A DNA stretch of 63,825 bases, counting the filler, from Aduncisulcus paluster (taxonomy: Eukaryota), in the NCBI GenBank assembly GCA_024181965.1. It is 5 parts of 5 records of this genome, joined end to end, with 100 filler letters (N's around TTAATTAATTAA, not from the genome) between each part and the next. Parts side by side here need not be neighbours in the genome. Positions count along the whole stretch, not along the records: positions 33,809 to 59,119 come from BQXS01010984.1; 4 more parts are not named here. One strand, 5' to 3'. The notes below the pieces were generated by a model, which was not told the DNA's origin, ran no database searches, and saw only the letters and a list, made by a program, of their open reading frames with translations. Below are positions 13,627 to 59,029 of this stretch, piece after piece (the stretch's first letter is position 1; the number at the start of each line of letters is the position of its first letter). A program made the position numbers and the translations under genes.

Positions 13627-13650
13627 TTGAATAGAGATAGAATTTCTTAT

Positions 13651-26349: not shown

Positions 26350-26373
26350 TTGAATAGAGATGGAATTTCTAAT

Positions 26374-35884: not shown

Positions 35885-35975
35885 GTAAATGAAATTTTTC
35901 ACTATTACAAATCAAAAATTTCATTCCGCTCCGTGACGGCTTGAAGCCCTGTCTGATTAGTTTCAAATATAAAGT

Positions 35976-37906: not shown

Positions 37907-38165
37907 AATCTTCTTACTTATCCCTTGTTTAAATTACCATAACACTGGATTGTGGAAAGATGAAAATCATTTTTCAAGAGATAAACTAGTTAGTAACTTT
38001 TTCAAGACTCTTGAATCAAGAGCTTATAGCACATCACAAATGAATAAAGTTGAAAATTACCATTTCATCTTCAGAGTACTCATTTTCTCTTCCGGTAGGG
38101 CCGGTAAATGCCGAACTCCCCAATTCAATTGGCTTAATTCATGATTTTTCTTTGAAACTCACAAG

Positions 38166-39221
38166 ATGTACGAAGAATACTCTAGTTCTTCAAGTTCTGA
38201 TGAGGAGATTCCTTTACGCACATATCGAAGTGGATATATCCCGATAATTTTGAAGTTTCAACCAGGGGGACTAATTCCTGGTAAATCCTACTTCCTAAAG
38301 ACATCTTCCCACCCAATGCCGATTGAAGTGATGACTTACAAAGTCAAAAGAAAATTCAAGGGGTATTATTGTCCTATTATTGCACCCTCAACAGAAATAC
38401 CAATTTTTGTGATCAACAGCGAAGGAACACGAATTGTCGATGCACTAAACGGAATTTATGGAGTTAAATATAAGAAAGAAATTGGAGAATATGTTTTAAA
38501 TCCAAGAAAATGTGCAAAGGTTTCCTCTTGGAGCAAACTATCCTCTTGTCTTCATTATGAAGATGTGGTTCCCAAAGAAATTATTCAGTTTTGGAAAAAT
38601 GAATGTATATCCAGTGAAATCAAAGCGGAAATTACAACATTTGAGTCATTTTTGCATTCTTTTTGCTTCAAAATGAAACACGGAATAACTAAAGAATTAT
38701 TATCTTCCTTTCATATTAAGTTTGGTGCCAACAAAGTTGAAAAACCACAAACTCAAGAAACCTCTCCACCAAAAGAAAGAATTTCAACACCCTTATTAGA
38801 CATTGACTCTTCCTCTCCAAAATCAGATTCCCCGGGTCCAATAGATCATTCCCCAACGCCTAAACTCAAAAAAAATGAAGACATCTCCGGTATCTGTGAA
38901 ACCAAACCCTCAAAAACACCAGATTCTTTGAAAGTGGAGTCCACAAAACTACAAAGTGGAATATATGATGAAGTCGAAGAAGAATCAACTTCCATCATCT
39001 CTTCCTCTTCTTCAGAACCCCGAGCGCCCCCCCTCAAACCCAAAGAAAATGGAGGAACCGACCCCACCGATTCTATTATCCTCGATTGTCGTTCCGACAG
39101 AAGAACTGTCTTCATCAGATTCTGTTCCTGTCCCAAATCCTATCCACGAGCATCATATTCAAGTTCAAACCACCAGCGCAACAACATCAGCAAAGTCTTG
39201 CATTGTTACAAACCTCGATGA
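38166..39221 (+). CDS. Segment 1 (N-terminus) of giant midasin-like AAA+ gene
   Basis: 351-aa ORF overlapping the next ORF; coding sense appears to switch +1 near the C7 run at 39027-39033. Confidence 0.55.
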   Translation: MYEEYSSSSSSDEEIPLRTYRSGYIPIILKFQPGGLIPGKSYFLKTSSHPMPIEVMTYKVKRKFKGYYCPIIAPSTEIPIFVINSEGTRIVDALNGIYGVKYKKEIGEYVLNPRKCAKVSSWSKLSSCLHYEDVVPKEIIQFWKNECISSEIKAEITTFESFLHSFCFKMKHGITKELLSSFHIKFGANKVEKPQTQETSPPKERISTPLLDIDSSSPKSDSPGPIDHSPTPKLKKNEDISGICETKPSKTPDSLKVESTKLQSGIYDEVEEESTSIISSSSSEPRAPPLKPKENGGTDPTDSIILDCRSDRRTVFIRFCSCPKSYPRASYSSSNHQRNNISKVLHCYKPR

Positions 39222-40365
39222 AGAGTCCTCTAGTTCTTATTCCAGTTCTATCATATCATCATCCGAACCTGAAACAACTACTTCACATCCAATTTACCAT
39301 TACATTAAATCCGATGAAATTTATGGGTTTGATTCATATTCTCCAAATTTCTGTGTTATTGATGTTATCGTTTCTGGAGATTTATCCGGATATTATCTGG
39401 TGTCTGCCCTGGATAATTGGCAAGGAACTCAAGGTATGATAGGTATTGCCGAAGGAAACTCTCATTTCAAATACCCAATGTTGATAAAATTCAATCCAGA
39501 TTTTGTTGAAGGAGAAGATATTTTGCAATTTAAGCTATACAATACCGATAAAGATGATTGGAAAACAATTCATGATGACCAGTCTTTTCCAATTGCTTTG
39601 CATAGCGAAACCTCAAATAACAGTGTATCATTAGCCCTTATTCACGCAGAACAGCAAAGATCAACCGAGATTTATTCCCCAACAACTCATATTGATCGAA
39701 TCATGTCATGTTTTGCTCAACGAACTCTTGGCTTGAGATCTCTCACAATTCCTTTCTTTGAGTGTGATTTCTTCTCAATGTGGTATGAATCCCTTGTTGA
39801 AGCGTTGATTCTTCTTTGTATCGATTTCTTGACATTTATGCCTAAGAAAAGAAAAGTTGAAGAATTTATGAAATTCTTGGATACATTTTTCTTCAAACTC
39901 TCTCTTTCTGAAGATGATTTCGGATGTATTTTTGTAAATGACGACGAATATAAGAAATTAATTGAAAAAGTATTTTTTCAAGCCAAAAATATCCTAAAGG
40001 TCAAAAAGAAGGACAAAACCCACAAGATTGCGCTTGAGAACTTGCGAAGCAAAAAGAGAGCTGAAATAGTACAGAGAAAAAAATCACAAGTATCAAAAAA
40101 ACCAAATTATGCTCTGAATCTAAATTTGGACAATACATATCTCCTTCTTCTAAAAATCCCTTTTCAACAATATTATCCGTCTCTCAAGGGAAAGCAAAAC
40201 GAGCGAAAAAACAACTTTCTAAAGAACAACTCTTTGATAAAGAAATGGAACTTTCTTGTTTTGCTTTATTTCCGTCCCATCCAGTTTCTGAGTCGCTCCT
40301 TCGTCAAAAGCAAGAGACTATTCGTCAAGAAGTTTCTTGGGATGTTTCAACAGCTTCCCAATTAA
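38956..40365 (+). CDS. Segment 2 of giant midasin-like gene, with a possible carbohydrate-binding-module-like domain
   Basis: YYLVSALDNWQ...LQFKL....DDW pattern at ~39350-39570; coding sense appears to switch -1 near the A7 runs at 40077-40101. Confidence 0.55.
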   Translation: MEYMMKSKKNQLPSSLPLLQNPERPPSNPKKMEEPTPPILLSSIVVPTEELSSSDSVPVPNPIHEHHIQVQTTSATTSAKSCIVTNLDEESSSSYSSSIISSSEPETTTSHPIYHYIKSDEIYGFDSYSPNFCVIDVIVSGDLSGYYLVSALDNWQGTQGMIGIAEGNSHFKYPMLIKFNPDFVEGEDILQFKLYNTDKDDWKTIHDDQSFPIALHSETSNNSVSLALIHAEQQRSTEIYSPTTHIDRIMSCFAQRTLGLRSLTIPFFECDFFSMWYESLVEALILLCIDFLTFMPKKRKVEEFMKFLDTFFFKLSLSEDDFGCIFVNDDEYKKLIEKVFFQAKNILKVKKKDKTHKIALENLRSKKRAEIVQRKKSQVSKKPNYALNLNLDNTYLLLLKIPFQQYYPSLKGKQNERKNNFLKNNSLIKKWNFLVLLYFRPIQFLSRSFVKSKRLFVKKFLGMFQQLPN

Positions 40366-43249
40366 TTCCTTGTTCTTTGGACTCAGAAATAGCATATTTC
40401 CTCCCGATATCACTTGATAATACATATTTTCATCTGAGAAGTGCTGAAGTTCAAGAAAAAGAAAAAAAAGATGATCAAATGGAATTGGAAAGGTATAATA
40501 TTCCCCCCATTTCTTCGAGAAAAATGAAAAAAATAGACTCTCATTCATTGAAAAATAACATGGGCATGCCTTGTTTGATTGTTTTTATTCCATCAAGTGC
40601 ATTTTCATTAGATTCTTTTTTGTCAGAAAAACAATTTTCTTTTTTCCAAAGGAATTGTTTTTCATACATCACCATTGAGTATACTCAGAGCCCATCCATT
40701 TCCTCTCTCTCTGCCAAATTGATTTCTTCAATTCTATATCAATCTCTCAAAAAGAAGAAAGGAAATGTTTCAGCCATTATGGGGCAATTTTCAAAAAACC
40801 CATGGAAATCTCCAAATCAATACCTAAAATCCATAAAAAGTTTGATTTTTGCTGAACTTGACAAGGTTGAAACTACTCTTGATACGGAAGTGTCTAGAAT
40901 TTGGAATTGTAACATTATGCCAAATCCCACCTGTTTCCCAAATATCCAGGACATTTCTTCAAGTCATTTAGAAAAAATACAGATTCTTTCACTCCAAAAT
41001 GTTGTTATAGGTGAGATTTGTGATCCTCATATCAGTTCATTCTTCAAGATGATTTGCTCTCTCCTTGAAAATGAATGGTGGTATGTAAGAATTTGTGTAA
41101 AATATAAATCTGTTGACAAAGAAAGAGGCTCAAGAAAAGAATCCTGTGCTTTATCATCAAGTTTGGTCATGAAAGCTTCTTCTGAACCATTAGTACCAAG
41201 TTCTTCCAGTATTCGAAAGACCTTACAGGTCGAAAAATCAAAATATCATTCAGTGAATACTGATAATATTGAACAATTGCCATCAGTTGACCATGATAAT
41301 GTGAGAATTCGAATGTGTGAATTCGACGATTCAAAACTTGGAACAGATTTTATCCTCACTGAGAAAGCTAAAAAACGTATCCAAACAATCATAACTTCAA
41401 TTGAATGTGGAATTCCTTTATTATTGGAAGGAGACACTGGTACAAGCAAAAGTTTTAGTGTTGAGGCGACTGCTCAGGTTCAAGGTTTGAGTTTGTCAAG
41501 TGTTAAAACCAAAATCGAAGAAGAACGTGAAAATGCAGATGGAAAACCTATTCGTCGACTTCTACGTTTTAATCTCTCATCTCAAACAACAAAAAATGAT
41601 CTCATTGGGCGAGAAGAGTGGTGTGGAGATGCGATCCAACCATACCAATTCAAAAAGGGGGCTTTTCTTGAGGCTTTCGAAAATGGACATTATATTCTTT
41701 TAGATGAATTAAATTTAGCACCCGATAGTGTTTTACAATGCATTGAGACATGTTTGGATAGTGGATCATTGTGGGTTAAACAACTCGATGAAACAAAAGA
41801 ATATATTATGCACCCAAATTTCAGATTAATTGCAACTCAAAACCCTCCTCGTGGAATGTTTAGTGGAAAACGAAAAGAATTAAGTTCTCAATTCCTTTCT
41901 CGTTTTCGAAGAGTAACGTTCAGCAATTTGACTGTGGAGGAATGTGAAACGATCGCTCAAAGATCAAATCCAAAATTATCATCTCATCAAAGGAATTTAC
42001 TTGCAAGAGCTCACACATTTCTATGCTCCATGAATATTCCCTTGTCAATTCCAAATGTTTATACATTGAGAGATATGATTGGAGTTGCAAAAGCAATTGG
42101 GATTGAGCACGATGATTCAAGGTTTTCTTTTGATAAAATTCTGTTTTTATATTATCTTGGAGCATTTTCAAAGGGTGAATTGAAGCAAATCCTCGATATT
42201 TCGAACGCACCCGACTATTTGACTAGTACATTTTATGCTCTCACGGCTGAAACTTCACCTAAACCTGCGATAGCATCTTTAATCCATGTTTCTTTCCCAA
42301 TCATTGAATCAAATCGAGAAAGACAAAGATGTCTGAATGACTTTGATGCAAAGTGTGAAGCTGAGAAAAAAGATCCTTCTCATTCGCACCTATTTTCAGA
42401 AAATAGTGTACTTTCTCATGTTTCTCCTATTTCCTATTCTTCTGTGAAGATAGAATGTTATATGTTGTCCCGGCATGAAAAACTCATTCAAGATGCAATT
42501 GATGGTGCTATTTTGGGTCGACACGTTCTATTTGTTGGACAGCCGAATAGTTGTCTCTCTTTCCTTGCTACTGAAGCTCCATATCGATACAAAATGGGTC
42601 ATGGAACACCTTATCTTATTCCTTTTACCTCCGATACTGATATCTCTGTGATGCTCGGTCAATCATTACCAATTACAAAAATGAGTGATGGAAAAAGAAT
42701 TCAAACTGTTGAGTGGCAAGATGGACCGATTGTATCAGCGCTAAGATCCGGAGATGTATGTATTCTCGACAATGTTGATCGAGGTGATCAAACGATTACT
42801 GAGAGATTAAATCCAATCCTTGAGAAAAATTTGAGGATGGAGGAAAAAGGTCGGGTATTTGAGCTTACAGAGGCTCCAGATGATCATCAAGCCGTTGAAA
42901 TTGATTCATCTTTCCGTTTCTTTGGGACTGCCTCCATCACCGATCGTGGTTTGAATTTATCTCCTGCGTTCCTGAATAGGTTCCTCGTAATCCGTGTTGA
43001 TCCTCTTTCAAAGGCAGAATTTTTAGATTTTGTAAAGAGTATTGTACTTGTTTGGAATTCTATCCTCACAAAATTACTTTTAGAATCACCATTGGAAGAA
43101 ACTGAGTTGGAAGAAGAAGAAATGTTTGAATCTTCCGATGAAATTGAAGATGAACTTCTTAATTCTAATTTCATCAAAAAGAAAACATCAGATTCCCCTT
43201 CTCAAGATGAGAAACAAAAAGAAAAAGAGGAAGAAGAAGAGAAAGGAGC
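40245..43249 (+). CDS. Segment 3 of giant midasin-like gene: AAA modules 1-2
   Basis: PLLLEGDTGTSKS, RFNLSSQT...DLIG, ILLDELNLA, HPNFRLIATQNP, LSRF; second module has a degenerate Walker A plus ILDNVD and LSPAFLNRF. Frame is open from ~40065. Confidence 0.85.
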
Positions 43250-43454
43250 NNNNNNNNNNNNNNNNNNNNCTCACAAAATTACTTTTAGAATCACCATTGG
43301 AAGAAACTGAGTTGGAAGAAGAAGAAATGTTTGAATCTTCCGATGAAATTGAAGATGAACTTCTTAATTCTAATTTCATCAAAAAGAAAACATCAGATTC
43401 CCCTTCTCAAGATGAGAAACAAAAAGAAAAAGAGGAAGAAGAAGAGAAAGGAGC
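43065..43454. other. Assembly artefact: 43065-43249 duplicated at 43270-43454 around a 20-N gap
   Basis: Direct comparison; removing 205 nt fuses segments 3 and 4 in frame. Confidence 0.92.
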
Positions 43455-46400
43455 AAAGGAAGAAGAAGCAAAGGAAGATCATGATGAACAAGAAGAAGAG
43501 GAAGAAGAAGATATATTTTCTGATTATTTTGGCTCTGAAGAAGGATTTGGCAAATGTCTTGATGACATTGATTCTCAATCTCAAGAATTGTCCTCGATTG
43601 GATATGATGATGAAAATTCTGAATCATCACATCAGAATCTTTCTGATGAGTTTAGCAGAGAAAAAGATGAAGATTTGAGAGGAAGTGAAGTTCAATCAGA
43701 TTCTTCAAAAAGATATGAAAATGTGTTAGCAATCGTCAAATCTTTTTCAAATCCGTCATTCCGTTCCAAAATCTGTGAACTTTGTGAATTTTGTTATAAA
43801 TTATATGATGAAATTGCTCCAATCAATGACACTCCCATCTTAATTTCTCTCTTAAGAACTTGTGTTGGGCTCATTCAGTTTTCTCGAACTAGAAATTCTT
43901 CCTTATTCCCCGAATTTTGTTCCGATGAATTCACTTCCTTATCAAATGCTTCATTGCAGGCAATTTTTGATTTGATTGCTCCCTTATTCATCCCATCTTT
44001 TTCCCCTAAGAACCCCGAAAACATTATTTCCCTCCAAAAATCTCTCAATTCGATAATTTTTTCACCTCATGACGAAGAATTTTCTGCCCGTGACGATCTT
44101 GAATTTCTTCATCAATCCCATTTCGTAATTACTCCATCAACTAAGATCAATATTGAGAAATTGACACCAGCAATAATTGCAGGAACGCCTATTTGTATTG
44201 TTGGTGAAGCTCTAAGTGGGAAAAGTGCATTGGCTAACTATTTGGGAGAGAAAAGAAAATCAGTCTTTCAACCAATCGAGTCATATTCATCTTCCAAAAT
44301 TGAAAGATTTCAATGCAACCAAAATTCTGAAAAAGAATCGTTGTTTGGTTCTTTATCTCTCTCTAATTCCTTTTCTTATGAATTAGGACCTCTTTCGAAG
44401 GCCATTCAAAACGGTTGGACATTTATTCTAGAAGATGCACACTTGCTTGAACCATCAGTTCTCCAACAAATAGCAAATGTCCTCTCTGTGTTGCCAGGTC
44501 AAAGAATCCCACTTCCCAATAGTATTTCGAAATGCGTGAGGAGGCATATAAATTTCACTTTTATTTGTACAACTCGAAAACCTTTAGAATCAACTTTTCC
44601 TTATATTCCTCATTTATTCATTGAAAAATTCAATATTAAGGATATTGCTTCAATCTGTGATTTCTACAAAAGTCATTGTAATGTTGGAATGAGATATTGC
44701 GACAAAATCTCTTTGTTATTATCTCAATTAATCGAAAAGAATGAAACGTATTCGTACTCGGTAAAAGATATAAATACGATCCTTCTCCGAATTTCATACC
44801 TTGAGAGAACAAATTGCTTTGACAAATGTTTGGTTGATGAGTTTGGAAGGCAAAAGTTTTTATTAGATGTTGTACCTGCCAGGATTGCTACCCTTCTTCT
44901 GGTTAGTACTATTCCAATTGCTAAAAGGGATGAATTATGCCCAAATATTTTTTCGGTTATTGATGATGTTTTTGGATTGATTGATTCTAAGTTTTTAAAC
45001 TCGAAGGAATGGCTTGACTCTGAAGTTACTGTGGAAAAACTCCATCAAACAATACAAAAGGGATGCCTCTCCATTCCCTTTTCAGCCCCAGTTCTCTCAC
45101 AGAGTAGTATACATCCTCGAATCCTCCAGTTATTGTATTCTTTGGAATGTACAGCTCCAAATGAGCATATTCTTCTGGTTGGTGAGACCTGTTACAAATC
45201 AAAGGCCTTATCAGATTGGTTGAATAATATTCCATCCAAAGATTGCAATATACCCCTTTTTGAATTTTCAAGAGAAAGTGAGATATCTTCTATTCTTGGT
45301 GCTGAACAATTACACACTTTGAAACAAGTTGAAGAAACTTATAAATCAATGGAAGAATTTCTAAAAAATATTGAAGAAGAAGGAGAAATCGGAAGTTCAA
45401 TCATGTTTGAATATATTCAACAGTTAAAAAAGATGAAAAGGAAGAAAGAAAAAGATTTGAAAGCTAGTTTAGCCGAAAATGGGGAAGATATCAGTGCAGC
45501 TTCTGGATTTAATAAGTATTGTATGAATTTTGTTCCAGCTTCACTCCTTTGTAGAGCTAGTATCGGAAGGCCAGTTCTAATCAAGAATATTGCCTTGCCT
45601 CCCGCTTCTGTTGTTGAAAGTTTATGCCCCTTATTACATCCAAATGGACCAATATTTGACATTCCCAAGACAATATTCTTCCAAAATAGAAATGGGTCCC
45701 CAAAATCAATTCCAAATTGGGCAAACCACGCTTCTAGAGGTGAGCGTTTTGTTCTCTATGCCACATGTCATCCTCAAAGTTATGATAAACTATCACCCGC
45801 GATTCGAACAAGAATGACAGTTATGCATGTTAATTCATATAACACTGATGATAGAAAACTTGTTATTTCGAATCAATTTATCCATAACATGAAAAAATAT
45901 CCTCCTAAACAACGCCTTGATCACTCTGAAATGTTAAAGTTAGAAACAATTCTCTTGGAAATATATGAAAAAGCTTCTGATTATATCTCGATTGCGTTTA
46001 GATCTTTAATTCTCTGGGTTGACTCAACCATGGCCATGTATTGCCAAAAAGGAGATTCACAAACGTCTCCAACACATTGTGTATCCTATGCCTTTGTGAG
46101 ATCAGTGGTTGATGGATTGGAAGATGATACCCGAGATAGTTTGATAAGAATGCTTTGGGAAGATAAATATCTCCCAGATTCATTTTTAGAAATCATTCCT
46201 GACAGAGTTGGAAAAGAATTATGCTCCAAAGAATCATCTAGTATCGGAACATTCAATGATTTCTTCACTATAAAGTTGTTAAAACAAAAGCATTCAAATA
46301 GATTTATCCATATCAAAAGCAAGGTTTCCCAAATATCTTTCAATTTCCCAGTTTCGAAAAAATATACTATTCCCAAGTCGATTCATGAATTTATTTTTGT

Positions 46401-49400: not shown

Positions 49401-52400
49401 GTGTGTGGATAATTTACGGCGTGAAGGAATATCAAATGCTCAATATTGTGGAATATTGATTTCTTTATATTCTAGATACTTTTATTATAATCCAAAATCA
49501 AAATTCAACCCCTTCCACTCACTACAGGCAATTCTTGAAATTGCCGAAGCTTTAATCATCCTTTCTCACCATGGGATTAACAATGTGAAAATTAAGCCAA
49601 GATTATATGAACGAGAAAAACCACAACCAGGTACCGTTCTCATTGAACAACGGGAATCCAAACTCACTCATGTGCTTTTCTTGAGGGATAGTTCAAATGG
49701 CGATGGAAATGTTTGTGATAATGCTAAGATAAAAATATCACCAGTTCATTTTCTTCGATGCGCAGCTTTCAATTTAGTTCGTCAGAGTTCTAAACTAAAA
49801 AAGAAAGAAAAGACATCCAAACCTCATAAAATATCAGTTCCTAACACTGCCTTTGATCGAGAAGAACAGAAAAAATTACCAACAAATTATCTTGAAAGAA
49901 TTCCCAAAAAAAATGATTTTTTTTTCCCACTTGCCATTATTGAAAATCCTAAGAAATCTCGTCAGGGTTCAAAACCCAAACTTTCTCAATCCATGCAATT
50001 ATGGAATATTCGCGACTTCTTCTCAATGATGTGCTTTATTCCTCAAAATAGGTGTAGCCTTTTCCACCATCTTTTAGACCCTGCCTTTATTCATCCGATG
50101 CACCGAGAATTTCAAGAATATATCCATCATTCTGTTCAATCGTTATCATTTTTAGAGTTAATCAAATCCTCTTGTTATAGAAAATTGATTTTCAAGATGC
50201 CAACTGAGCTACTTCAGATATCCCAGCAAATTAATATTGATAATTATCGGTTGATCCTTAATTTATACATGCAAAAAGAAGAATTTTTGAGTTTAGATCG
50301 TAAAGATCCGAAATGGAAATCACTAATTTCCAAAATTTTCCACTCTTCTCTACAACAAAGAGTGATGCAAATAAGACAATTAGAAGATTGTACAAAACAT
50401 TCTAAAGGATTTTTCAATAATTTTGGGTTCAAATCTATGTCTTATGATGTAATAATTGGATTACTGGATAAATTAAAAGGAGAATCCGATGCTGAACAAT
50501 TCGAATCTATGAAAATCTCAGAACAGACACGGAAAGTTGGAGAAGCTTCACGACAATTGAGGAAGAAAATTGATACCGTCAGAACTCAACTCCCTTGTAA
50601 CCGAGCAGTTGAAAACCTTGTTCAGATGTATGAACGGGGATTAGCTCCCAAAATCGAAAAATTGATCCAAGATGAACATTCTCGAAACGAAGTCTTTGAA
50701 GGGCTTGCCGAAACTATCGACGAGTACAAGAGAAAATGTGAAAATATGTCAATTCAGTTGGATATTATATTTTCGGATCATTTTAAGAAGGACCAAGCTA
50801 TGTCTGAAAAGAAAGTTGAGCTGGGTGTTTTGTGGAAACTAATTAATGAGCAAATTAATCGTAAACATAAGGTTTACATTCCTCAAACACCAATAACTCG
50901 AATGTTTGAAATGCTTTATAGATATTGTAAGATTAGATTCCAAATTCAGACTTTCTTAAAATCTATCTCCAGCAAAACCACTCCAAATGAAATGAGAATG
51001 AGAATTGTAAATTTGCTTGAAAAAATGAGAGGATTAGATATTAATGGCAAGGCAATTGATTTTTTAATTGACTTTGTGATGGATTATTATATCAAAGATG
51101 AATTTGTTCATGACGCTTGCAAATCGATTATTAACTGGATTTCATTAATATCAATAATTTCTTTGAATGAACAACTTTCAGAAATTGTTACAGTTGATAA
51201 TTTTGCATCAGAAATGGCCAAATTTGAAAATTTAGTGTCGTTATTACAATTGGCTCACTATATCTCGCCCTATGAAACTAATGTGAACAATGTTGATTTT
51301 TTCATCCATATTGAAAATATTTCAATCGATTCTATTGCTCAACTTCTGATATTTATTTCCCATCAACAATTTGGATCAGCGATGGGTCAACAAGTTTTGA
51401 CTGCATTAAGAATAGTTTCTCTGGATGACGAATCAAATACTTCGAAGCTTGAAAATCAATATAAGCAATATTTAGATAATTGTTCATTAATTGTACGTCA
51501 ATTTCCCGATAATTTAGCGGATTCAATATTCTTGAGATTGATTTGCGCTCAAAATAACATCCCAATCTCATATATAAATCATAATTTCTCCGAAAATATT
51601 CCTCATGGATTTCCTATAACTCTCTGCGCTCTTTCTGGAGTTTTACAAATGTCAAAACATTCTATTGAGCGTCTTTGTGACTCAAAAAGCCTTCAAAAAA
51701 GATGTTGTTCAAAAATTATGATGGAATTAAGTCGTTCTTCCTTGATTTCTCCGCATGAATCCCTATACTTTTCTTTATTTTATGAAAAACCCATATGTAA
51801 TGGAGATAACCTGTTTTATTTTTCATTATTTAACGAGTTGATCAGCAGTTTCGAGGTCCAATTACGTGCGTTTGAAAAAGCGAACAAGAAAAATGTTAAA
51901 TTTCAACAATTTTTGAAATCTCATACTCCAATCATTAAAAATCAAGCTCTGATTGAATTTGAAAAAATCTTGCATGATCCAAGTATTTTGTCATCTCTGA
52001 CTTCGGACGGAGAGAGTTCTGATAATGATCAATTCATTTTATTTTATCCATCAAAAGTAGTATCTTTGATGTACAAAGAGTTTCTCCGCTCTGAATTGCA
52101 AAATATCCATGAACATATCCAAAGAAATTCAATTGAAAAAGAAAGGTTGCAAGAAGAATATAATTCTCAAAAAATGATAATCTTCGAATTTCAAGATGAA
52201 TTATCCAAACAATTTTCTTCTTGGGCAGATACTTTGTATCTTCGAGCACAAGAAAAATATGAAAGGGAAAGTGATCAAAGGAAGCTTCGAGAATGTTGCA
52301 AAAATATCCATGAAATTCGAAAATGGTGGAAAAAGGGGGAAAGAGATCTTGATCTCCAACATTTAAAAGTAGATTTTAAAGTCTCAAAACATGCTTGTAA

Positions 52401-52590
52401 AGTGGAGATCAAACCAGGTGCAAAATGGAAAAGTAAGGATAAACAATGCATGTTTTCCACATTTTTTTCTCCATTCCATTCACTCTCTTATGAATTAATT
52501 AAATCCAGATGGTCAATGATGCTTCGCGATACAACTTCTTTTATTTGCATAATGCCAAAAATTCCGTTTCAGTCTTTATATCGAATTTAA
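43270..52590 (+). CDS. Segment 4 of giant midasin-like gene: acidic tract, AAA modules 3-6, long helical linker
   Basis: Walker A-like GEALSGKS (44203), GETCYKS (45181), AAPGIGKS (46471) and GGSGSGKS (47488), with ILFDETNLA, LLDNL, ERLNSLIE and FRLFMTADP. Confidence 0.85.
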   Translation, partial: LTKLLLESPLEETELEEEEMFESSDEIEDELLNSNFIKKKTSDSPSQDEKQKEKEEEEEKGAKEEEAKEDHDEQEEEEEEDIFSDYFGSEEGFGKCLDDIDSQSQELSSIGYDDENSESSHQNLSDEFSREKDEDLRGSEVQSDSSKRYENVLAIVKSFSNPSFRSKICELCEFCYKLYDEIAPINDTPILISLLRTCVGLIQFSRTRNSSLFPEFCSDEFTSLSNASLQAIFDLIAPLFIPSFSPKNPENIISLQKSLNSIIFSPHDEEFSARDDLEFLHQSHFVITPSTKINIEKLTPAIIAGTPICIVGEALSGKSALANYLGEKRKSVFQPIESYSSSKIERFQCNQNSEKESLFGSLSLSNSFSYELGPLSKAIQNGWTFILEDAHLLEPSVLQQIANVLSVLPGQRIPLPNSISKCVRRHINFTFICTTRKPLESTFPYIPHLFIEKFNIKDIASICDFYKSHCNVGMRYCDKISLLLSQLIEKNETYSYSVKDINTILLRISYLERTNCFDKCLVDEFGRQKFLLDVVPARIATLLLVSTIPIAKRDELCPNIFSVIDDVFGLIDSKFLNSKEWLDSEVTVEKLHQTIQKGCLSIPFSAPVLSQSSIHPRILQLLYSLECTAPNEHILLVGETCYKSKALSDWLNNIPSKDCNIPLFEFSRESEISSILGAEQLHTLKQVEETYKSMEEFLKNIEEEGEIGSSIMFEYIQQLKKMKRKKEKDLKASLAENGEDISAASGFNKYCMNFVPASLLCRASIGRPVLIKNIALPPASVVESLCPLLHPNGPIFDIPKTIFFQNRNGSPKSIPNWANHASRGERFVLYATCHPQSYDKLSPAIRTRMTVMHVNSYNTDDRKLVISNQFIHNMKKYPPKQRLDHSEMLKLETILLEIYEKASDYISIAFRSLILWVDSTMAMYCQKGDSQTSPTHCVSYAFVRSVVDGLEDDTRDSLIRMLWEDKYLPDSFLEIIPDRVGKELCSKESSSIGTFNDFFTIKLLKQKHSNRFIHIKSKVSQISFNFPVSKKYTIPKSIHEFIFVPTLVHMLDAFLTAATCNCPVFIEAAPGIGKSACAQVIAELLDLPFKRFNFSNSTSLDDLFGRYQSFNEKNDDGTEGVLQFKRGEGALLSAIGTNEQYSPVSYPTRIILFDETNLAPPEVLDVLLPMCSMTNRNVTCPDGSIIDCSHVLVFATLNPANISGSRNPIPQSLQQSVFYLNVPQYSNEELLQIAQKKLASLPNVSTNAVSQLIHAHATTMLFTKKLGNTDYSSLREIIKVSEIYLAAIEANAPLSFEFVLDLVYFSRFDPTMRSELLRNAKLPSFSSGMMDLQPFRQRTEDSRLLLQIGRAKIDCTNWLSPTDRSILGRLPPGQPIPIQHSLSSQQLVVMEKIGSIIPTKRAILLLGGSGSGKSFLVETMAKLCGKKLHVIQLNSESDIGSIVGRLEPTPPSGQEKLTNTIVKTIQSVLQGMMAVKTKKSTREKFLRLQRYIPALLNPNFAKRKATLIECSLVFPQFKIPLEECEIFLQKAKANFKFIKSTLIKAMEDGDFFLLDNLQAAPSDVCERLNSLIEENQRLYLFEKDSETVYVENPTKPGEKQISKDFRLFMTADPNRVGAHAIPPSFMSRCIAISTSSLVPKLQSSHDSSISEQIAVKNLVEIAGRSLFNDSGVFANKKQLSLDFGAAIACAFANMYKLWTFSPPSSITTQFSVRSFFHTLKSFDIIVRKQKLLPPHEQCDHIAILKFVLFHHYEKMSDDQSYRRMAQQSIIEKVVTGYSALKTVNFCEKHDHFIELERNIASFEHICLNSLIKEEDSQDLAKKLFCYVDGFKNSSDFIHIDKLRNGKSGKNSGRFERLLQLQAPQSSLNEKIQHLRTIIMSLLNDIIQLSISKSDFNIRYSELKTFTFSYCSLCAKESILSDLVKEIGSQLFPTFIFTDYVLRQFSSLQMDMKHDKIDDENDENDQGYNDRQQLKWCIETYSLSDSPKNKPLLPQSFHWYPLLYSSIQMAFEILKQNSKPSKSFKIESHYNAISNALAGSFVNHQCVDNLRREGISNAQYCGILISLYSRYFYYNPKSKFNPFHSLQAILEIAEALIILSHHGINNVKIKPRLYEREKPQPGTVLIEQRESKLTHVLFLRDSSNGDGNVCDNAKIKISPVHFLRCAAFNLVRQSSKLKKKEKTSKPHKISVPNTAFDREEQKKLPTNYLERIPKKNDFFFPLAIIENPKKSRQGSKPKLSQSMQLWNIRDFFSMMCFIPQNRCSLFHHLLDPAFIHPMHREFQEYIHHSVQSLSFLELIKSSCYRKLIFKMPTELLQISQQINIDNYRLILNLYMQKEEFLSLDRKDPKWKSLISKIFHSSLQQRVMQIRQLEDCTKHSKGFFNNFGFKSMSYDVIIGLLDKLKGESDAEQFESMKISEQTRKVGEASRQLRKKIDTVRTQLPCNRAVENLVQMYERGLAPKIEKLIQDEHSRNEVFEGLAETIDEYKRKCENMSIQLDIIFSDHFKKDQAMSEKKVELGVLWKLINEQINRKHKVYIPQTPITRMFEMLYRYCKIRFQIQTFLKSISSKTTPNEMRMRIVNLLEKMRGLDINGKAIDFLIDFVMDYYIKDEFVHDACKSIINWISLISIISLNEQLSEIVTVDNFASEMAKFENLVSLLQLAHYISPYETNVNNVDFFIHIENISIDSIAQLLIFISHQQFGSAMGQQVLTALRIVSLDDESNTSKLENQYKQYLDNCSLIVRQFPDNLADSIFLRLICAQNNIPISYINHNFSENIPHGFPITLCALSGVLQMSKHSIERLCDSKSLQKRCCSKIMMELSRSSLISPHESLYFSLFYEKPICNGDNLFYFSLFNELISSFEVQLRAFEKANKKNVKFQQFLKSHTPIIKNQALIEFEKILHDPSILSSLTSDGESSDNDQFILFYPSKVVSLMYKEFLRSELQNIHEHIQRNSIEKERLQEEYNSQKMIIFEFQDELSKQFSSWADTLYLRAQEKYERESDQRKLRECCKNIHEIRKWWKKGERDLDLQHLKVDFKVSKHACKVEIKPGAKWKSKDKQCMFSTFFSPFHSLSYELIKSRWSMMLRDTTSFICIMPKIPFQSLYRI

Positions 52591-52603
52591 AATATCTAAA
52601 TAT

Positions 52604-55600
52604 TTGCGTCGTCAAAATATTGTAAAATTCTCTGGTTCTCTGTCTGATGGGATTTTTGTAATTCCCCACAGCGCTGAAAGGAGCATTTTCCAATCTATTC
52701 AATTAAATGGAGCAGATGAATTGTGTACTGAACTTCCTTTTGAAAATATCCCTATTAATCTTGAAAATATTGAAATTTTCCCATTATTCTTCCCCAATGA
52801 TACCTATAGTTTTATGCGATCACAATCTCGCTATCGATCCCCACCTCCTCCTCGAAAGATCGAGCTTCCAAGAGAATTCTTACCATTTTCCGAGGGAAGT
52901 TTGTATGAATATTATAATGATCTTCTTAGAGTGATAAATTCAAAATATGATTCTTTACGAAAGGAAATTATGTTTCCTTGTATTGAGAAAAATGATCTTA
53001 AAAAATCAGAAGCACAATTTCACGATCTTGAAAAGAGAATTTCCGTATTGAAGAGTGATGAGAGAAAAATTCAGGATATTCTTCCCGAACAAATATATCC
53101 AGATTTTTCTCATGAAATCGATTTTGTCAAAATCCCAAAATTTTCTCTTAACGTCGATCATTTTCAACCAAATCCACAGATAATTAATTCATCTTTTAAT
53201 TGTGAATCAATATTCATTCCTCTGAAACCAATAATTAGTGGAACTTATGTATCTGGACCCATTTGTACTGTGAAGATTGAAAATTTCTCCTCGTTAAATA
53301 ATATTACCTTTGCATACCAAAAAGATGACCATTCTCCTTTCTCCCCTCTTTTCTCATTTTCTTTAAAATATGCCTCAGCTCAAGTGCTCGAATTAAGGAT
53401 TAATTTCAATTGTAGTTCAATCCCTGTCGTTGAGAAAGAACAACAATATCTTGAAACACATCATCTATGTGTTGATATCGATGAATCTCCCGCTATTCTT
53501 CCAATATCATTACAATGCTGTATTTTACCCAATCTTATTTGCATTGAATGTGATCAAGGAATGAGATATAACAAGGACAAACTGGTAGCGATTGGACCTA
53601 TGCCATTAAATGTGAAATATCATCGACCTCGAGGATATCCCAATCATTCATTCATTGTTCAACACATTCAAGCTGGATATGACAACAAATGTTCAGGTTG
53701 TCATTGGAATTTAAATAAGGATGCCTTCCAATTTCAGTCAGAAAGAGGGAAAGGTGGCGACATTTTAGCATTGTCAGATGTGAAGACTTGTTCCTTACCC
53801 AGCTTCTCAGTATATTGCGAAAAGTTGAAAAGTAGTACTCTCAGAATATTTGGCTTTTATCAATCCAAAAAAAATGTCTTGAGTGAAATGAAAATTGTCG
53901 AATTTTCTACTCGATTATTAACAAAACGGTTTCGAGTATTTATTTGGAATGGTACTGGATCATCAATTAAAACATCAATTAAACTTGCTAAGAATCCTCT
54001 TAAAGCCAAATTTCTCTCGAATGGATATAAGAATGAAATGAATTTATCAATGAAAAATAATTCATGGAACGAAATCGGATTACAAGTTGATATTCCAACA
54101 TACAGACAAAGTATCGAAAACAAATGGAACATTCATATTCTCGATAAGAATCAAGAAATTTTGTTCTGTATTAAAGTAGTTTATGTATATAATTCAAAGT
54201 CCAATAATCAAATCGAATGGGCTATTGGAAAAGTTGATAATTCTCCAAAGAAAGAAGTTGTATCAAAGGAATTGGATCGAATGGCTAAAGTCCTTAAAGA
54301 AGAGCATAAAAAACAATTGGATGCTTTCCCTCTTGATGAAGGAGAGAAATCACCTGCCTTGTACTATAAAAATAGAAAGCCAATTTTGAGTGAAGAGTTT
54401 GATAGATATGATTCAAGTTGCAAAGTAGACCTTTTCACTCCCAAGTTATCATTTTCTTCAATGGATGAAATTGAATTCTCTGCTCAAACTCTGAGAGAAC
54501 TGCAAGATTTATGCGATGTTGATTCTTTGAAACTCTTTTCTGGTATTCATGCTCTCTGGATGAAGTTATTATCCTGTCAACATAATTTGGATCGGTGCGT
54601 GTTTGCTATTCAAAGAAAGGAAGCTGAAGAAAAGCAAAGACTTCTTGAGATATTTGAAGAATATATTGGGTTCTTGAAATCTTTTTCTTGTATTCATCTC
54701 GTTCCACCTCTGAAGCAAATTATTGAATTGAAATTTAAGACTATCTCAATATCTATCGATCAAATTTGTTCAATATCTACTCCAACCCAATTTGTTGAAT
54801 TTCATCCATTCCAAATATCGTCAGGAGATGTTCAGTTTGATTCTATCCATCAACCGTCCATTCAAAACAGCAATTCTATTTCGAAATCACAAAAATCCAA
54901 TCCAATCAAACCTCAATTAAATGTAATGTATTTTTCAAAACCTTCGAAAGCTCAAAAAGCAAAGAGCAAAAAGCTTCATTTCCAATCAACTTCAGACCAT
55001 CAATCTCAAAGAAAAGTTGATATCCAGCATGCAACAATTAAATCTGATCAAAAATTGTCCGTGTTGACACCACATGATGAACTTGAGCTTCTTGAAGTTC
55101 TCGGGAAAGCTCAAATGTTTTCTCTTGATGTATTTGATTTTGCAACAGATGAACAACTTGAGAAGTTGAAAGAAGCAAAAGATTTGACATTGGAGACTGT
55201 TATATCAAAAGATCAACCAAAGAGGGGGGGCAGTGAAACATGTGATAAAGCCCAGAATCCTGATGAATATTATTCTCGTACTCTATCAATATTGAGCAGT
55301 ACTTACGCTAAAGAAAAGCCCTGGGCTATTTTACCATCTTTGGAGGTTTCCGAAATTGTGGAAAAGGAAGATTTAATCAAACTGATATCTTTTGATAAAA
55401 AAATCGAAAAAGAATTCATGGGTGGCTATCTTAAAGAGTTTGCTGCAACTTTCCAATCAATGATAGATAAAATTACTGGATTTGTCTGTGAAAAACGTAT
55501 GGAAGGAACAATATCGTATGATAAAACTGATGTTGTTCTTGCCGTTGATATTCACAAATATTTGAAGGAGGAGAAACTACTCGTGATCCATCTGGTTTTC

Positions 55601-58372
55601 CTCCTTGCATTATCTCTTCACAATCTAAAATTGAGATATTCGATTGTTCTTTTCGGTGATAGATTCAACCAATTTGTTGTAAAACGAATCGATGAACCTC
55701 ATAGTGAAATGGCATTGCAACGCTTTTTAGATGCATATTTTGGAGCAGAAAGTTCTATTTCCTTCCCGTTGGATGTTTTTCAATTCATCCATAATTCATG
55801 TGGTTTCCACGATGACGATAATGACTTGTCAATTTCTTCATCCACTCGTGGCAAATTCTCGACAATTCTTATTAGTCCATGTCTCTCTCTCCAAGTAATC
55901 AATCCTAGTTGCCATAAAGATGGACAATATTCTTGGAACACTCACATGACTGGTGAATGTTTGGATATTATTGTTGTGAATTTATTGAAGGAAGCATCAA
56001 ATCGGACTAATCTTGATTTATGTCTTCAAAATATCTCCGATACCCACGTTCGTATTCATCCAATTGATAAAATTGATTTATCAAGAATATTCCTGGAAAC
56101 AACTCACTCTTTGTATCATAAACATGAAATCTTTGGCGATTTGTTGTGCAAATCTCTCAATAGGAAGTTAAAACCGAAAAGAATTATTGAAAAAAGCTGT
56201 TCAACTTTTATGGAATCACTATCGTCGAATGTTCGTGACTTACCAAGTGTGGTGTCTATTGAATCCTTGAATGTTTTTCATACCGCAACAAAACTCAAAT
56301 CCATGAAAAAGGTTGCCTTTCAAGGAGAAGAATCTGAAATCTTTTACATTGATAATGGTATTTCATCGATCAAACCTTCATGTCCTGTTCTTCGTAGTGA
56401 AGCAGTTCTGTTGCCAAAAAATGAAGATTTGCACCCAATTATTTCCAAAATTTGTAATACAGAAGGCATTGACCTCCATTCACTTTCTGAATTTCACCTT
56501 GTCACTTCTCATGCTCCATTTATTAATTCTCAAGCATCAACTTTGGGAAACTTGATAAAACCCAACAAGGCTACTTCAATGATTTCATCCAATTCTGGCT
56601 CTGAAATTGATTTCCACAAGTTATTCATGGCTCTAATGGGAAGTATGGAAACAAAGATATTTAAACGTAAGGCTGGAAATAAGATTCGTGTTTATTCTAT
56701 ATCTCTCGTCCTTGATCTTTCCCCAAGTTCAATATGTGAGGTTAACGTTTGTCACACATTTTTTTCTTTCGTATTTGCTCTTCATTTACTCTCAAGATTA
56801 TCTATTCCCCATGTTGATGTGATTCTATGTAGTGATAGACCTTATCTGGTTTTCAAAGATGAAAGACCTGAAAATATCATCAAACCTACATCATCTCTCT
56901 GGCCTATCATTTGCCACGCATATACCCTGGCTATAGACTACAAGAGTGATGTTTTTGCTCAAGGTATTGTGTGTGCGCTTTCCTTACAATCAAATCGGAC
57001 ATGCCCAAGTGCTTTGTTCTCTTTAGTTAGTCAAAAATCTATTTGGTGCTTCTCTGATGGCATTTTGGATCCATTATCAAGATGTATTATTCATTCCTGT
57101 CAAGCAAGAGCGTATGTTGTCGATGTTGATATTATTGGTATTGGTGTTGGAATTCAAGGATCAATTTGTTTGCAAGATACATTCCAAAAATGTTGTTTCT
57201 CACTCAAACCTGATGAAATTGGGGAGGCTCTGTGTTGTTTATACAATCCCAAATCAACTAAATCGAAAAAGGCAAATTTCTCAGTGTTATATTCGACTCC
57301 TCAATGCACATTTGATTCCAAATCCATTCTTGAGAGAAAACCTTGGAATGGTTTGTTGTCAGATTCCATTAGGATGCATTGTAATCGCCACAAAAGTAGA
57401 TTTGCAAGTGCCAGACTTAATCACAAAGCCTTTTCTGAGGAAGCTATCGGAGAAGGCAGAACTGACAATATTGATGGAGCAGATTTGTATCTTGATGGAG
57501 CTTTTTCTGGATTTTCCATCCTAGTCTGTATGTTTTATTTTGATTGTGAAGCGGACATCAATGAGGATGTTTTCATTAATGGAAAATCGCATTCTGGTTC
57601 CTCTCCATATAATTCTATGAAACAAAAAGGATTCTCGGTCACAATTACAAAAGATTACATTTCATCAATCCGTGAACTTAGATCTGGAAAACACTCAATT
57701 TGTATGATAATTTCTTCAACTGGAACCTCATCTTGTATTAAAGACACTTCACATTTATCTGAATTCATTCAAACAGTTGATAAATATTGGAAATTAGGAG
57801 GATCTCTTTTCCTATGGGTTGATAATGCTCCATTTTTTCACGAAGTCAACCTATTCCTTGCACAAGCTGTGTTTGAGACAGAAAGAGGATCAATTCCATG
57901 TAAATTCAGAATGGAGGGAAACTATATTGGGCAGAAATTTTTTTCCCCCAAGCTTCCAGTGTCTGGAGAGCTCCAAAGAGGATGTTTTAATGCAGAAAAA
58001 TTTATCACCGTTGGAAGTCGACAAATTCCTGCTTTTAGGGGAGGACTTAGAAAAATCTTTGAAGGCATTACCATAGCATTGTTCACTCAAAGAACCAGAG
58101 AAGGAATGTATCCTTTTGTCCCATTTGCTATGAATACAGCAACAGATCATATGTATTCTCCAGCGATTGCTTATCATATTTCAAATCCAGATTATACATC
58201 ACAAGGAAGTATAATAATTGATTCAGCCTTTACAAAATTATATTTTAACTATGATGAAGCGGGTACAGCCCGGTGGATTATAAACGCAATTTGTTTATTG
58301 GCAGAGAGGTTCAGTGAAAGAAAGTTTGACATGACAAAAGAAACTGAATCTCAAATGTCTCCATTCCATTAG
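52604..58372 (+). CDS. Segment 5 of giant midasin-like gene: beta-rich region, two VWA-like domains, C-terminal alpha/beta domain
   Basis: No ATG at the ORF start, frame open from ~52553. DVVLAVD...YSIVLFGD; YSISLVLDLSPSS (DxSxS)...WCFSDG...IIGIGVG; C-terminal DGAFSG...WVDNAPF...FEGITI...DSAFTKLY...AGTARW. Confidence 0.75.
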   Translation: MRRQNIVKFSGSLSDGIFVIPHSAERSIFQSIQLNGADELCTELPFENIPINLENIEIFPLFFPNDTYSFMRSQSRYRSPPPPRKIELPREFLPFSEGSLYEYYNDLLRVINSKYDSLRKEIMFPCIEKNDLKKSEAQFHDLEKRISVLKSDERKIQDILPEQIYPDFSHEIDFVKIPKFSLNVDHFQPNPQIINSSFNCESIFIPLKPIISGTYVSGPICTVKIENFSSLNNITFAYQKDDHSPFSPLFSFSLKYASAQVLELRINFNCSSIPVVEKEQQYLETHHLCVDIDESPAILPISLQCCILPNLICIECDQGMRYNKDKLVAIGPMPLNVKYHRPRGYPNHSFIVQHIQAGYDNKCSGCHWNLNKDAFQFQSERGKGGDILALSDVKTCSLPSFSVYCEKLKSSTLRIFGFYQSKKNVLSEMKIVEFSTRLLTKRFRVFIWNGTGSSIKTSIKLAKNPLKAKFLSNGYKNEMNLSMKNNSWNEIGLQVDIPTYRQSIENKWNIHILDKNQEILFCIKVVYVYNSKSNNQIEWAIGKVDNSPKKEVVSKELDRMAKVLKEEHKKQLDAFPLDEGEKSPALYYKNRKPILSEEFDRYDSSCKVDLFTPKLSFSSMDEIEFSAQTLRELQDLCDVDSLKLFSGIHALWMKLLSCQHNLDRCVFAIQRKEAEEKQRLLEIFEEYIGFLKSFSCIHLVPPLKQIIELKFKTISISIDQICSISTPTQFVEFHPFQISSGDVQFDSIHQPSIQNSNSISKSQKSNPIKPQLNVMYFSKPSKAQKAKSKKLHFQSTSDHQSQRKVDIQHATIKSDQKLSVLTPHDELELLEVLGKAQMFSLDVFDFATDEQLEKLKEAKDLTLETVISKDQPKRGGSETCDKAQNPDEYYSRTLSILSSTYAKEKPWAILPSLEVSEIVEKEDLIKLISFDKKIEKEFMGGYLKEFAATFQSMIDKITGFVCEKRMEGTISYDKTDVVLAVDIHKYLKEEKLLVIHLVFLLALSLHNLKLRYSIVLFGDRFNQFVVKRIDEPHSEMALQRFLDAYFGAESSISFPLDVFQFIHNSCGFHDDDNDLSISSSTRGKFSTILISPCLSLQVINPSCHKDGQYSWNTHMTGECLDIIVVNLLKEASNRTNLDLCLQNISDTHVRIHPIDKIDLSRIFLETTHSLYHKHEIFGDLLCKSLNRKLKPKRIIEKSCSTFMESLSSNVRDLPSVVSIESLNVFHTATKLKSMKKVAFQGEESEIFYIDNGISSIKPSCPVLRSEAVLLPKNEDLHPIISKICNTEGIDLHSLSEFHLVTSHAPFINSQASTLGNLIKPNKATSMISSNSGSEIDFHKLFMALMGSMETKIFKRKAGNKIRVYSISLVLDLSPSSICEVNVCHTFFSFVFALHLLSRLSIPHVDVILCSDRPYLVFKDERPENIIKPTSSLWPIICHAYTLAIDYKSDVFAQGIVCALSLQSNRTCPSALFSLVSQKSIWCFSDGILDPLSRCIIHSCQARAYVVDVDIIGIGVGIQGSICLQDTFQKCCFSLKPDEIGEALCCLYNPKSTKSKKANFSVLYSTPQCTFDSKSILERKPWNGLLSDSIRMHCNRHKSRFASARLNHKAFSEEAIGEGRTDNIDGADLYLDGAFSGFSILVCMFYFDCEADINEDVFINGKSHSGSSPYNSMKQKGFSVTITKDYISSIRELRSGKHSICMIISSTGTSSCIKDTSHLSEFIQTVDKYWKLGGSLFLWVDNAPFFHEVNLFLAQAVFETERGSIPCKFRMEGNYIGQKFFSPKLPVSGELQRGCFNAEKFITVGSRQIPAFRGGLRKIFEGITIALFTQRTREGMYPFVPFAMNTATDHMYSPAIAYHISNPDYTSQGSIIIDSAFTKLYFNYDEAGTARWIINAICLLAERFSERKFDMTKETESQMSPFH

Positions 58373-59029
58373 ATTATCAGATCCTACAACGATGACAAAT
58401 GATCGTTGGATCCAAGTAAGACCGATATTTCACTTAAATCCAGTGTGTCTCAATTCTCGTCATACTAGTAGTATTATTAGTAATAAAGATTATTTTATTG
58501 TTTTTAAAAAGTGATCATTTTACTTCCTAAGAGGACAAATTAGAATACTTCCTTCAATGGAAATGAATTTCAATTCCCTTGCTGTTGCACATTTCACTTT
58601 TCTGTGAATTACAGACTTCTTTACACTACCAATAACTCTTGGACAATACATATAGAATAAATTATAACCAGAAATTGAAACAACTGTGGCCAAACTAACT
58701 ATAATGCGGTCCAATTTATTAATAAACAGATCTCGAGCGAACCAATCTATTTTTAGAATGTCCCTGAGAATGGTCACCACATCCTCCTCTCACTTGAAGA
58801 GGTCATCTCATGGCCGAAACCCTGTTCTCCTCTTCGTGATCATTCTCTTGGCGTAAACAAGCAACTATTATTTAAGCAAACAACACTCTCAGATCCGTTC
58901 GTGTAGCATATACCGGCTACAGGCGGTATTCTGATCAAAATGGGCGCATGACGCATACAGCATCAATGCAAACATGAACACACACAATCACAATCAAATG
59001 GCGTACACACACTGGCGTTCCGAATAAAA

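Follow-up and report, generated by a model that had tools for sequence, protein, structure and literature searches.

We analysed a window of 63,825 nucleotides from Aduncisulcus paluster, which in its full length consists of five parts of the genome joined by filler letters, and describe here a giant gene of the midasin type on its contig C10984 (BQXS01010984.1, window positions 33809-59119). A. paluster is described as a free-living microaerophilic fornicate grown together with bacteria as food, for which 11,743 introns have been predicted (PMC9933649); our genome searches refer to its 29.6-Mb assembly. The original prediction was a midasin-like protein of about 6,660 codons encoded by five consecutive open reading frames (ORFs) on the same strand that join into one frame path. 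All five ORFs were located, and the joined product comprises 6,666 aa plus a stop codon. The junctions between them (J1 to J4) were compared with two public runs, X1 and X2, of one sample, both in the form of contigs. Taken as a whole, the locus is probably best explained as belonging to a separate family of the MoxR/midasin clade whose proteins carry six AAA+ modules in a single chain; the copy described here was probably broken recently.

Reading frames and domains at the locus

The following features were assigned, with the type of evidence in brackets:

38145-39221, + strand, ORF1 (ORF call)
38166-39025, + strand, coding-like N-terminal segment of ORF1, for which no homologue was found (codon-phase score best in its own frame)
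38932-40365, + strand, ORF2 (ORF call)
38985-39086, + strand, J1, a real switch of frame by +1 with a C7 run near 39025 (X1 and X2 agree with the assembly; codon-phase interval)
39265-39600, + strand, small beta-sandwich, CBM20/CBM48-like by a weak hint alone (ESM features, low-confidence model)
40065-43310, + strand, ORF3 (ORF call)
40094, + strand, J2, assembly error with one A missing (A present in both runs)
41331-42160, + strand, AAA1, intact Walker A GDTGTSKS at 41430 and Walker B DE, most conserved site of the family (Pfam, motif rows)
42450-43063, + strand, AAA2, Walker A and B dead, arginine finger retained (motif rows)
43065-43700, + strand, acidic tract, contains the J3 duplication and N gap at 43065-43269 (composition, run comparison)
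43084-52590, + strand, ORF4 (ORF call)
44110-44990, + strand, AAA3, Walker A at 44203, Walker B degenerate in the window copy, ILEDA (motif rows)
45100-46200, + strand, AAA4, degenerate, arginine finger retained (motif rows)
46381-47260, + strand, AAA5, Walker A at 46471, Walker B DE intact (motif rows)
47400-48530, + strand, AAA6, Walker A at 47488, Walker B DN, arginine finger retained (motif rows)
48530-55400, + strand, long linker, colinear with the paralogue on contig C10823 (alignment to the paralogue)
52553-58372, + strand, ORF5 (ORF call)
52557-52590, + strand, J4, a real +1 frame break (no gap or joint in X1 and X2; paralogue open across it)
55500-56150, + strand, vWA1, degenerate metal site (hhalign to the MDN1 MIDAS profile, 88%, E 3e-6)
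56555-57250, + strand, vWA2, midasin-type pre-MIDAS segment and DxSxS...SDG (hhalign 96%, E 2.5e-9, 187 columns)
57500-58320, + strand, GIFT or class I glutamine-amidotransferase-like fold without conserved catalytic cysteine (model, fold search)
58370-58372, + strand, stop codon, with the third vWA usual in the family missing (X2 record ends at 58388)

Since J2 and J3 are assembly errors, the latter an N gap whose flank is duplicated over 205 nt and which is bypassed in both runs, ORFs 2-4 form one frame. As a control, the codon-phase model placed J2 at 40074-40116. The same model puts the J1 switch 130-230 nt upstream of the ORF1 stop, with a posterior of 1e-4 at the stop itself; the giant ORF could begin at 39049, where there is an in-frame ATG. 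At J4 the model leaves the switch anywhere within 52557-52587, and the ORF4 stop at 52588-52590 splits the ring and linker from the entire vWA-GIFT tail. Because J1 and J4 are unchanged in both runs, the joined path requires two real +1 shifts, with the reserve that contigs may hide rare alleles.

Each of the six Walker A positions named beforehand (41430, 42537, 44203, 45181, 46471 and 47488) was verified, as was an acidic tract between AAA2 and AAA3 reaching 43% D+E per 100 aa. Pfam AAA_5 matched the window protein with E 8.5e-27 and 1.9e-34. In a PDB sequence search midasin was the only six-AAA protein matched (E 5e-31 and 2e-66), followed by CobS, CbbQ and NorQ, while RNF213 and dynein were unmatched up to E 1. 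Modules 2 and 4 are degenerate as proposed, and AAA3 and AAA6 of the window copy also lack the Walker B glutamate. Across 18 family rows, Walker B DE is present in AAA1 of all 18, in AAA3 of 12 and in AAA5 of 7, and in AAA2, AAA4 or AAA6 of none; the arginine finger is found in AAA2 of 18/18 and AAA4 of 16/18. Judged by these motifs, catalytic glutamates are confined to the odd modules and strongest in AAA1, unlike in Mdn1, where AAA2-5 are given as the required sites (PMC6920918), and in RNF213, with live sites in AAA3 and AAA4; for dynein the main site is given as AAA1 (PMC7311170).

Searches of Pfam and of PDB sequences returned nothing for the tail domains, so fold prediction was needed. 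The two VWA-like domains previously noted are both present. In the window copy vWA1 reads DIHKY and SPC at positions where the family consensus is DxSxT...SDG, whereas the second indeed carries DxSxS (DLSPSS with FSDG, motif block at 56705). The stretch of about 300 aa behind them proved to be a GIFT-fold domain. With the last 339 aa we collected 350 relatives at E <= 0.001, and a model built from 60 of them (predicted local distance difference test, pLDDT, 87.6) matched the IFT52 N-terminal domain, OST48 (Wbp1) and site-1 protease with Z 15.7, 15.6 and 15.3, ThuA-like and other amidotransferase-fold proteins following close behind. The top match has a root-mean-square deviation of 2.8 over 198 aligned residues, and Foldseek gives E 4e-6 for the IFT52 N-terminus. 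The name GIFT is that of Pfam PF23355, which we take to denote the IFT52/OST48-type fold group. Unlike known GIFT proteins, to which identity is 7-14%, the family carries this domain between vWA domains behind an AAA ring. The cysteine expected of an active glutamine amidotransferase is absent from the 60-row consensus, which makes a binding role likelier than catalysis and means that the tail is not an obvious effector. Sugar binding has been proposed for GIFT domains. A search for a vWA3 remnant downstream of the stop found none (best in-strand E 0.41).

At the N-terminus, the genome search with ORF1 returned only itself and the Pfam search nothing; the segment may be an ancestral N-terminus or a separate short gene. 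The beta-sandwich at 39265-39600, which has a homologue in contig C10888, shows ESM features of a carbohydrate-binding module (CBM) at 0.92-0.93, with recognition below threshold. Its low-confidence model (pLDDT 57) has no significant fold match, the best Z of 5.6 being to unrelated sandwiches; the lack of CBM entries among these matches does not exclude a CBM. For the strand-rich region 53150-54300 of the linker, Ig-like by eye, an Ig/Hydin-like call was rejected by a leave-one-out profile test.

The family and its separation from midasin

The family has a common layout of a variable N-terminus, six AAA modules, a linker, vWA1, a midasin-type vWA2, GIFT and usually vWA3. Among the 42 fetched GIFT-region proteins of at least 4,000 aa, 31 contain the six modules in order, and none of 25 MDN1s has a GIFT region. 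A complete GIFT core was present in 52 proteins of at least 3,000 aa (near-duplicates included); 48 extend at least 150 aa further, 42 of these with a DxS/TxS-like motif past GIFT. N-termini range from none (P0031) and kinase-like ones (P0106, P0056) to more than 1,000 aa. The GIFT-like domain itself is mobile and is also joined to Hsp70, TROVE, WWE/EF-hand, CH and protein kinase domains (P0046, P0085, P0032, P0102, P0036, P0088). One 3,076-aa JGI protein (P0253) has a midasin-type double vWA, then two vWA domains without GIFT, and Hydin/ASH-like Ig repeats, and so represents a further variant of the tail.

In a small sampling, names were looked up for 30 of about 250 proteins. Members are found in Kipferlia, Dysnectes, Chilomastix, Tritrichomonas musculus, T. 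foetus and Blastocystis, and the rest are mostly metagenome proteins. To our knowledge all named hosts are anaerobes or microaerophiles. Streblomastix has a GIFT-vWA-kinase fragment, and rotifers and bacteria have GIFT-like clusters as well. Single ORFs encode the members of Kipferlia (6,414 aa) and T. foetus (5,566 aa) as well as L034 (6,644 codons) and L036 (6,709 codons). The last two are among the three of seven metagenome loci with (CCCCAAT)n at both ends, a repeat that has been reported from Entodinium caudatum, a rumen ciliate (PMC6211341). By group, the family thus extends over fornicates, parabasalids, Blastocystis and telomere-capped chromosomes of the gut-ciliate type. Overlapping-ORF frame breaks were seen in the family genes L037 and L039, the latter on an 11.6-kb contig that has telomere-like repeats at both ends and matches only the post-ring part of the query. 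The protein of T. musculus falls inside a set of gut-metagenome members with close relatives on (CCCCAAT)n-capped chromosomes (support 95-98), a placement consistent with lateral transfer and also with hidden paralogy or compositional bias.

A. paluster has at least four members: the window copy, C10888+C10823, C12392+C320+C11133 and C10256/C12132, plus fragments. AAA5 of the three paralogues is 71, 40 and 36% identical to that of the window copy. In the closest one (C10888+C10823) the third vWA is intact, so that paralogues with another C-terminus, for which a search had been suggested, do exist in the genome. This paralogue is split between AAA2 and AAA3 by a reverse-inserted young long terminal repeat (LTR) element (C10888:5553-5827, C10823:407-681) with identical 275-nt TG...CA repeats, a 4-nt site duplication, a polypurine tract and a gag-like ORF without Pfam match. 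The LTR has 34 matches in the genome, many of them 97-100% identical. What the original prediction missed is that the gene belongs to a widespread multi-copy family and is not a local oddity. The architecture was not found described in the literature searched by title and abstract, although the domain-architecture tables of AAA+ and conflict-system surveys may list it; a Blastocystis 'Midasin-like protein' is mentioned once, in a row of a single nucleotide polymorphism table (PMC9896827).

The proposal that the gene is a midasin paralogue and not the ribosome biogenesis factor was supported, and neither of the two outcomes named beforehand as refuting it was observed. A separate canonical MDN1 is encoded on contig C10794 and scores 190-314 bits on the MDN1 D2, D3 and D5 profiles, with 295-314 bits for D3 and D5 against at most 100 for any window module. 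Its 56% acidic tail runs off the contig, leaving the MIDAS beyond the contig end; the gene is itself split by an assembly gap (C10794:11999-12018). In the module tree, which included five family members, it nests within MDN1 D2, D3, D5 and D6 at support 99, the window modules each group with the same-numbered modules of other family members (support 89-97), and odd and even modules form two groups (98) in both the family and midasin. A concatenated ring tree, unrooted and with long branches and compositional warnings, put the 12 rows of the family and the 7 of MDN1 on opposite sides of a branch with support 100; gaps stood in for modules 2-4 of Blastocystis and module 3 of P0151, which had been mis-cut. 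The pooled tree omitted six family members and seven MDN1s. Approximately unbiased tests with four family members, which compared module-by-module descent from the MDN1 ring with a separate origin, did not tell the two apart: p was 0.32-0.49 for the pairings F1+D1, F3+D3 and F5+D5 and 0.30 for a clade uniting the odd modules of the family, none of these being rejected. VWA8 did not appear among the 40 matches listed, and no VWA8 sequence was compared directly. A 4,496-aa six-AAA protein (P0158/P0213, JGI) is sister to the family ring and has no vWA or GIFT match.

The family shares with Midasin/Rea1/MDN1 the six AAA+ modules in one chain, the long linker and a MIDAS vWA with pre-MIDAS segment. 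It differs from MDN1 in forming a separate clade, in being multi-copy with variable N-termini, and in carrying two to three vWA domains and GIFT where MDN1 has a D/E tether and a single terminal MIDAS. That the gene is nevertheless the organism's divergent MDN1 is a reading to which we give almost no credence and which is refuted unless C10794 is a contaminant. Midasin is the sole six-AAA PDB match, vWA2 has the midasin pre-MIDAS segment and UniRef names the Kipferlia member 'Midasin', but the genome contains, besides the canonical MDN1, two genes with the NLE domain of Mdn1 substrates. Moreover, the acidic tether ahead of the vWA is absent (D+E at most 23% in ORF5, compared with 39-46% in three MDN1s), and AAA2 and AAA4 appear dead by their motifs although Mdn1 is described as needing AAA2-5 (PMC6920918).

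State of the window copy

The NCBI protein for the locus (P0002) is a 'partial' of 4,676 aa. The public gene model spans J4 by an intron starting GTTTCAG and has a second gap of 966 nt inside an open frame; it depends on predicted introns that the run contigs do not show. The sequence cut out at J4 aligns weakly to the paralogue (E 4e-4). J4 does not look like a spliceosomal intron, as X2 (whose RNA status is a guess) has no joint there and the donor is unlike those of two real introns of the window, which start with GTATG and are AT-rich.

A +1 break at about 52570 would stop translation past the linker, after about 4,445 aa from the ATG at 39049, and the window copy also lacks the vWA1 metal site, the AAA3 glutamate and vWA3. 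We think it somewhat probable that this copy was broken recently; the alternatives, namely that it is recoded, that an intact allele is hidden or that the gene is split, are less likely even when taken together. Several points weigh against a broken copy. J4 is inseparable from the stop codon, with a codon-phase posterior of 0.39 in the last 9 nt, and the ORFs on either side (about 3,100 and 1,940 codons) are free of stops, so that either the gene is recoded or it was inactivated only very recently, if at all. Four of the 52 long members, the window gene included, end directly after GIFT, hence loss of vWA3 is not damage in itself. Furthermore, X1 and X2 represent one sample and are contigs, which lose rare or heterozygous variants.

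The copy might instead be functional, either by +1 ribosomal frameshifting at J4 and perhaps J1, through an intact allele, or with ring and tail produced as two chains and then joining up, as bacterial MoxR and vWA proteins do; we regard this as possible but doubtful. Both breaks are +1, ORF4 ends with ATT TAA A so that the switch may coincide with the stop, a single X2 record covers 42397-58388 without a joint, no further lesion is found over 20 kb, and overlapping-ORF breaks occur in two of the seven metagenome loci. On the other hand the J1 switch precedes the ORF1 stop by well over 100 nt, the region corresponding to J4 is open in two paralogues, the first Met of ORF5 lies 87 codons in, and we know of no programmed frameshifting in fornicates. 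It is highly improbable that the five ORFs are independent genes. ORF1 lacks a homologue, and X2 records break at 39040-39048 beside the ATG at 39049, a weak hint; neither this break nor that at 42347-42397 was taken as a transcript end. However, two of the junctions are artefacts of the assembly and ORFs 2-5 are colinear with single-ORF relatives; only ORF1 may be a separate gene. The window copy is covered by contigs of X2, possibly an RNA run.

Gaps of 20 N with duplicated flanks recur at window positions 6395, 11100 and 43250 and in contigs C10823, C12392, C10794 and C11133, and generate false frame breaks and false tandem repeats in the assembly. Elsewhere in the window, a tandem-repeat protein family is encoded at 12565-13650 and 22732-26373 (- strand), one ORF containing three units and a second ORF a single unit. 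Genes at 16425 (+ strand) and 15241 (- strand), which we take to be a Polo-like kinase and a SPAG6-like gene, contain GTATG...TAG introns of about 75-125 nt. A metallo-beta-lactamase-fold gene with an SHGHYDH motif (35042-35911, - strand) looks prokaryotic to us and may have been acquired laterally.

Possible function and significance

Reasoning from analogy, we consider it likely that the family acts as an ATP-driven remodeller that grips and pulls non-ribosomal clients by a MIDAS. As in Mdn1 and MoxR/vWA systems, the six modules would close into a ring, in which, given AAA+ ring geometry, the even modules may complete the ATP sites of the odd ones. The AAA1/AAA2 interface would be the main place of hydrolysis, with a variable contribution from AAA3/4 and AAA5/6. 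The tethered vWA could grip an acidic residue of the client via its metal site, and this vWA would dock on the ring and draw the client out of its complex, in the way described for Mdn1, whose MIDAS docks on its ring and extracts clients (PMC6920918). The target may be selected by GIFT and the exchangeable N-terminus as binding modules, clients being other than the pre-60S factors of MDN1. The same logic of a ring with a MIDAS co-chaperone is described for bacterial MoxR/vWA pairs such as NorQ-NorD, CbbQ-CbbO, CobS-CobT and ternary conflict systems (PMC7159879). The family departs from these pairs in that a single chain of 5,000-6,700 aa unites all parts, that its modules are not identical and that it has GIFT. 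It counts against this reading that for every member the pulling mechanism is drawn from analogy.

A use of this device in defence is compatible with gripping and pulling. The family would then serve bacteria-eating anaerobic protists in cell-autonomous defence, analogous to RNF213, with a variable N-terminal sensor, a ring as ATP switch and a tail gripping microbial or viral targets; we think this plausible but rather unlikely. The diverged A. paluster paralogues, exchanged N-termini and variable tails, the disruption of both near-complete A. paluster copies, the joining of GIFT to other domains and the weak CBM hint speak for it, and RNF213 is described as combining CBM20 with six AAA modules (PMC11549300). 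The two are also alike as giant six-AAA chains in which only some sites are live, and in having an extended N-terminus, which may include a small beta-sandwich. In contrast, Pfam and PDB searches found no E3 module (RING/RZ), nuclease or other effector, GIFT lacks a conserved catalytic cysteine, the CBM fold has no significant structural match, and the window copy is unmatched to RNF213 by sequence. The active-site pattern differs as well, with AAA4 dead in 18/18 family rows but AAA3 and AAA4 live in RNF213 (PMC7311170), which as described has no vWA tail. A wider proposal, in which a further eukaryotic single-chain six-AAA lineage besides dynein, midasin and RNF213, with a live/dead pair repeated three times, reached unrelated anaerobic protists in part through lateral transfer and acts as a fast-turnover antimicrobial grip-and-pull device, is unlikely in its core of defence plus transfer, and this core jointly with +1 frameshifting of the window copy is very improbable.

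The significance lies in the family more than in the window copy. Few eukaryotic proteins hold a whole AAA+ hexamer in one chain, and the family adds another, with a different firing pattern as predicted from its motifs (AAA1 dominant, even modules dead) and a new candidate client-binding tail. It covers three eukaryotic supergroups under the database labels 'Midasin' or 'hypothetical'. The dynein and midasin rings have been traced to a common ancestor (PMC3495828) or to independent fusions (PMC5100056), and the family provides new outgroups for this dispute. It is also a candidate, open to testing, for a part in the cell-autonomous defence of protists from gut and sediment.

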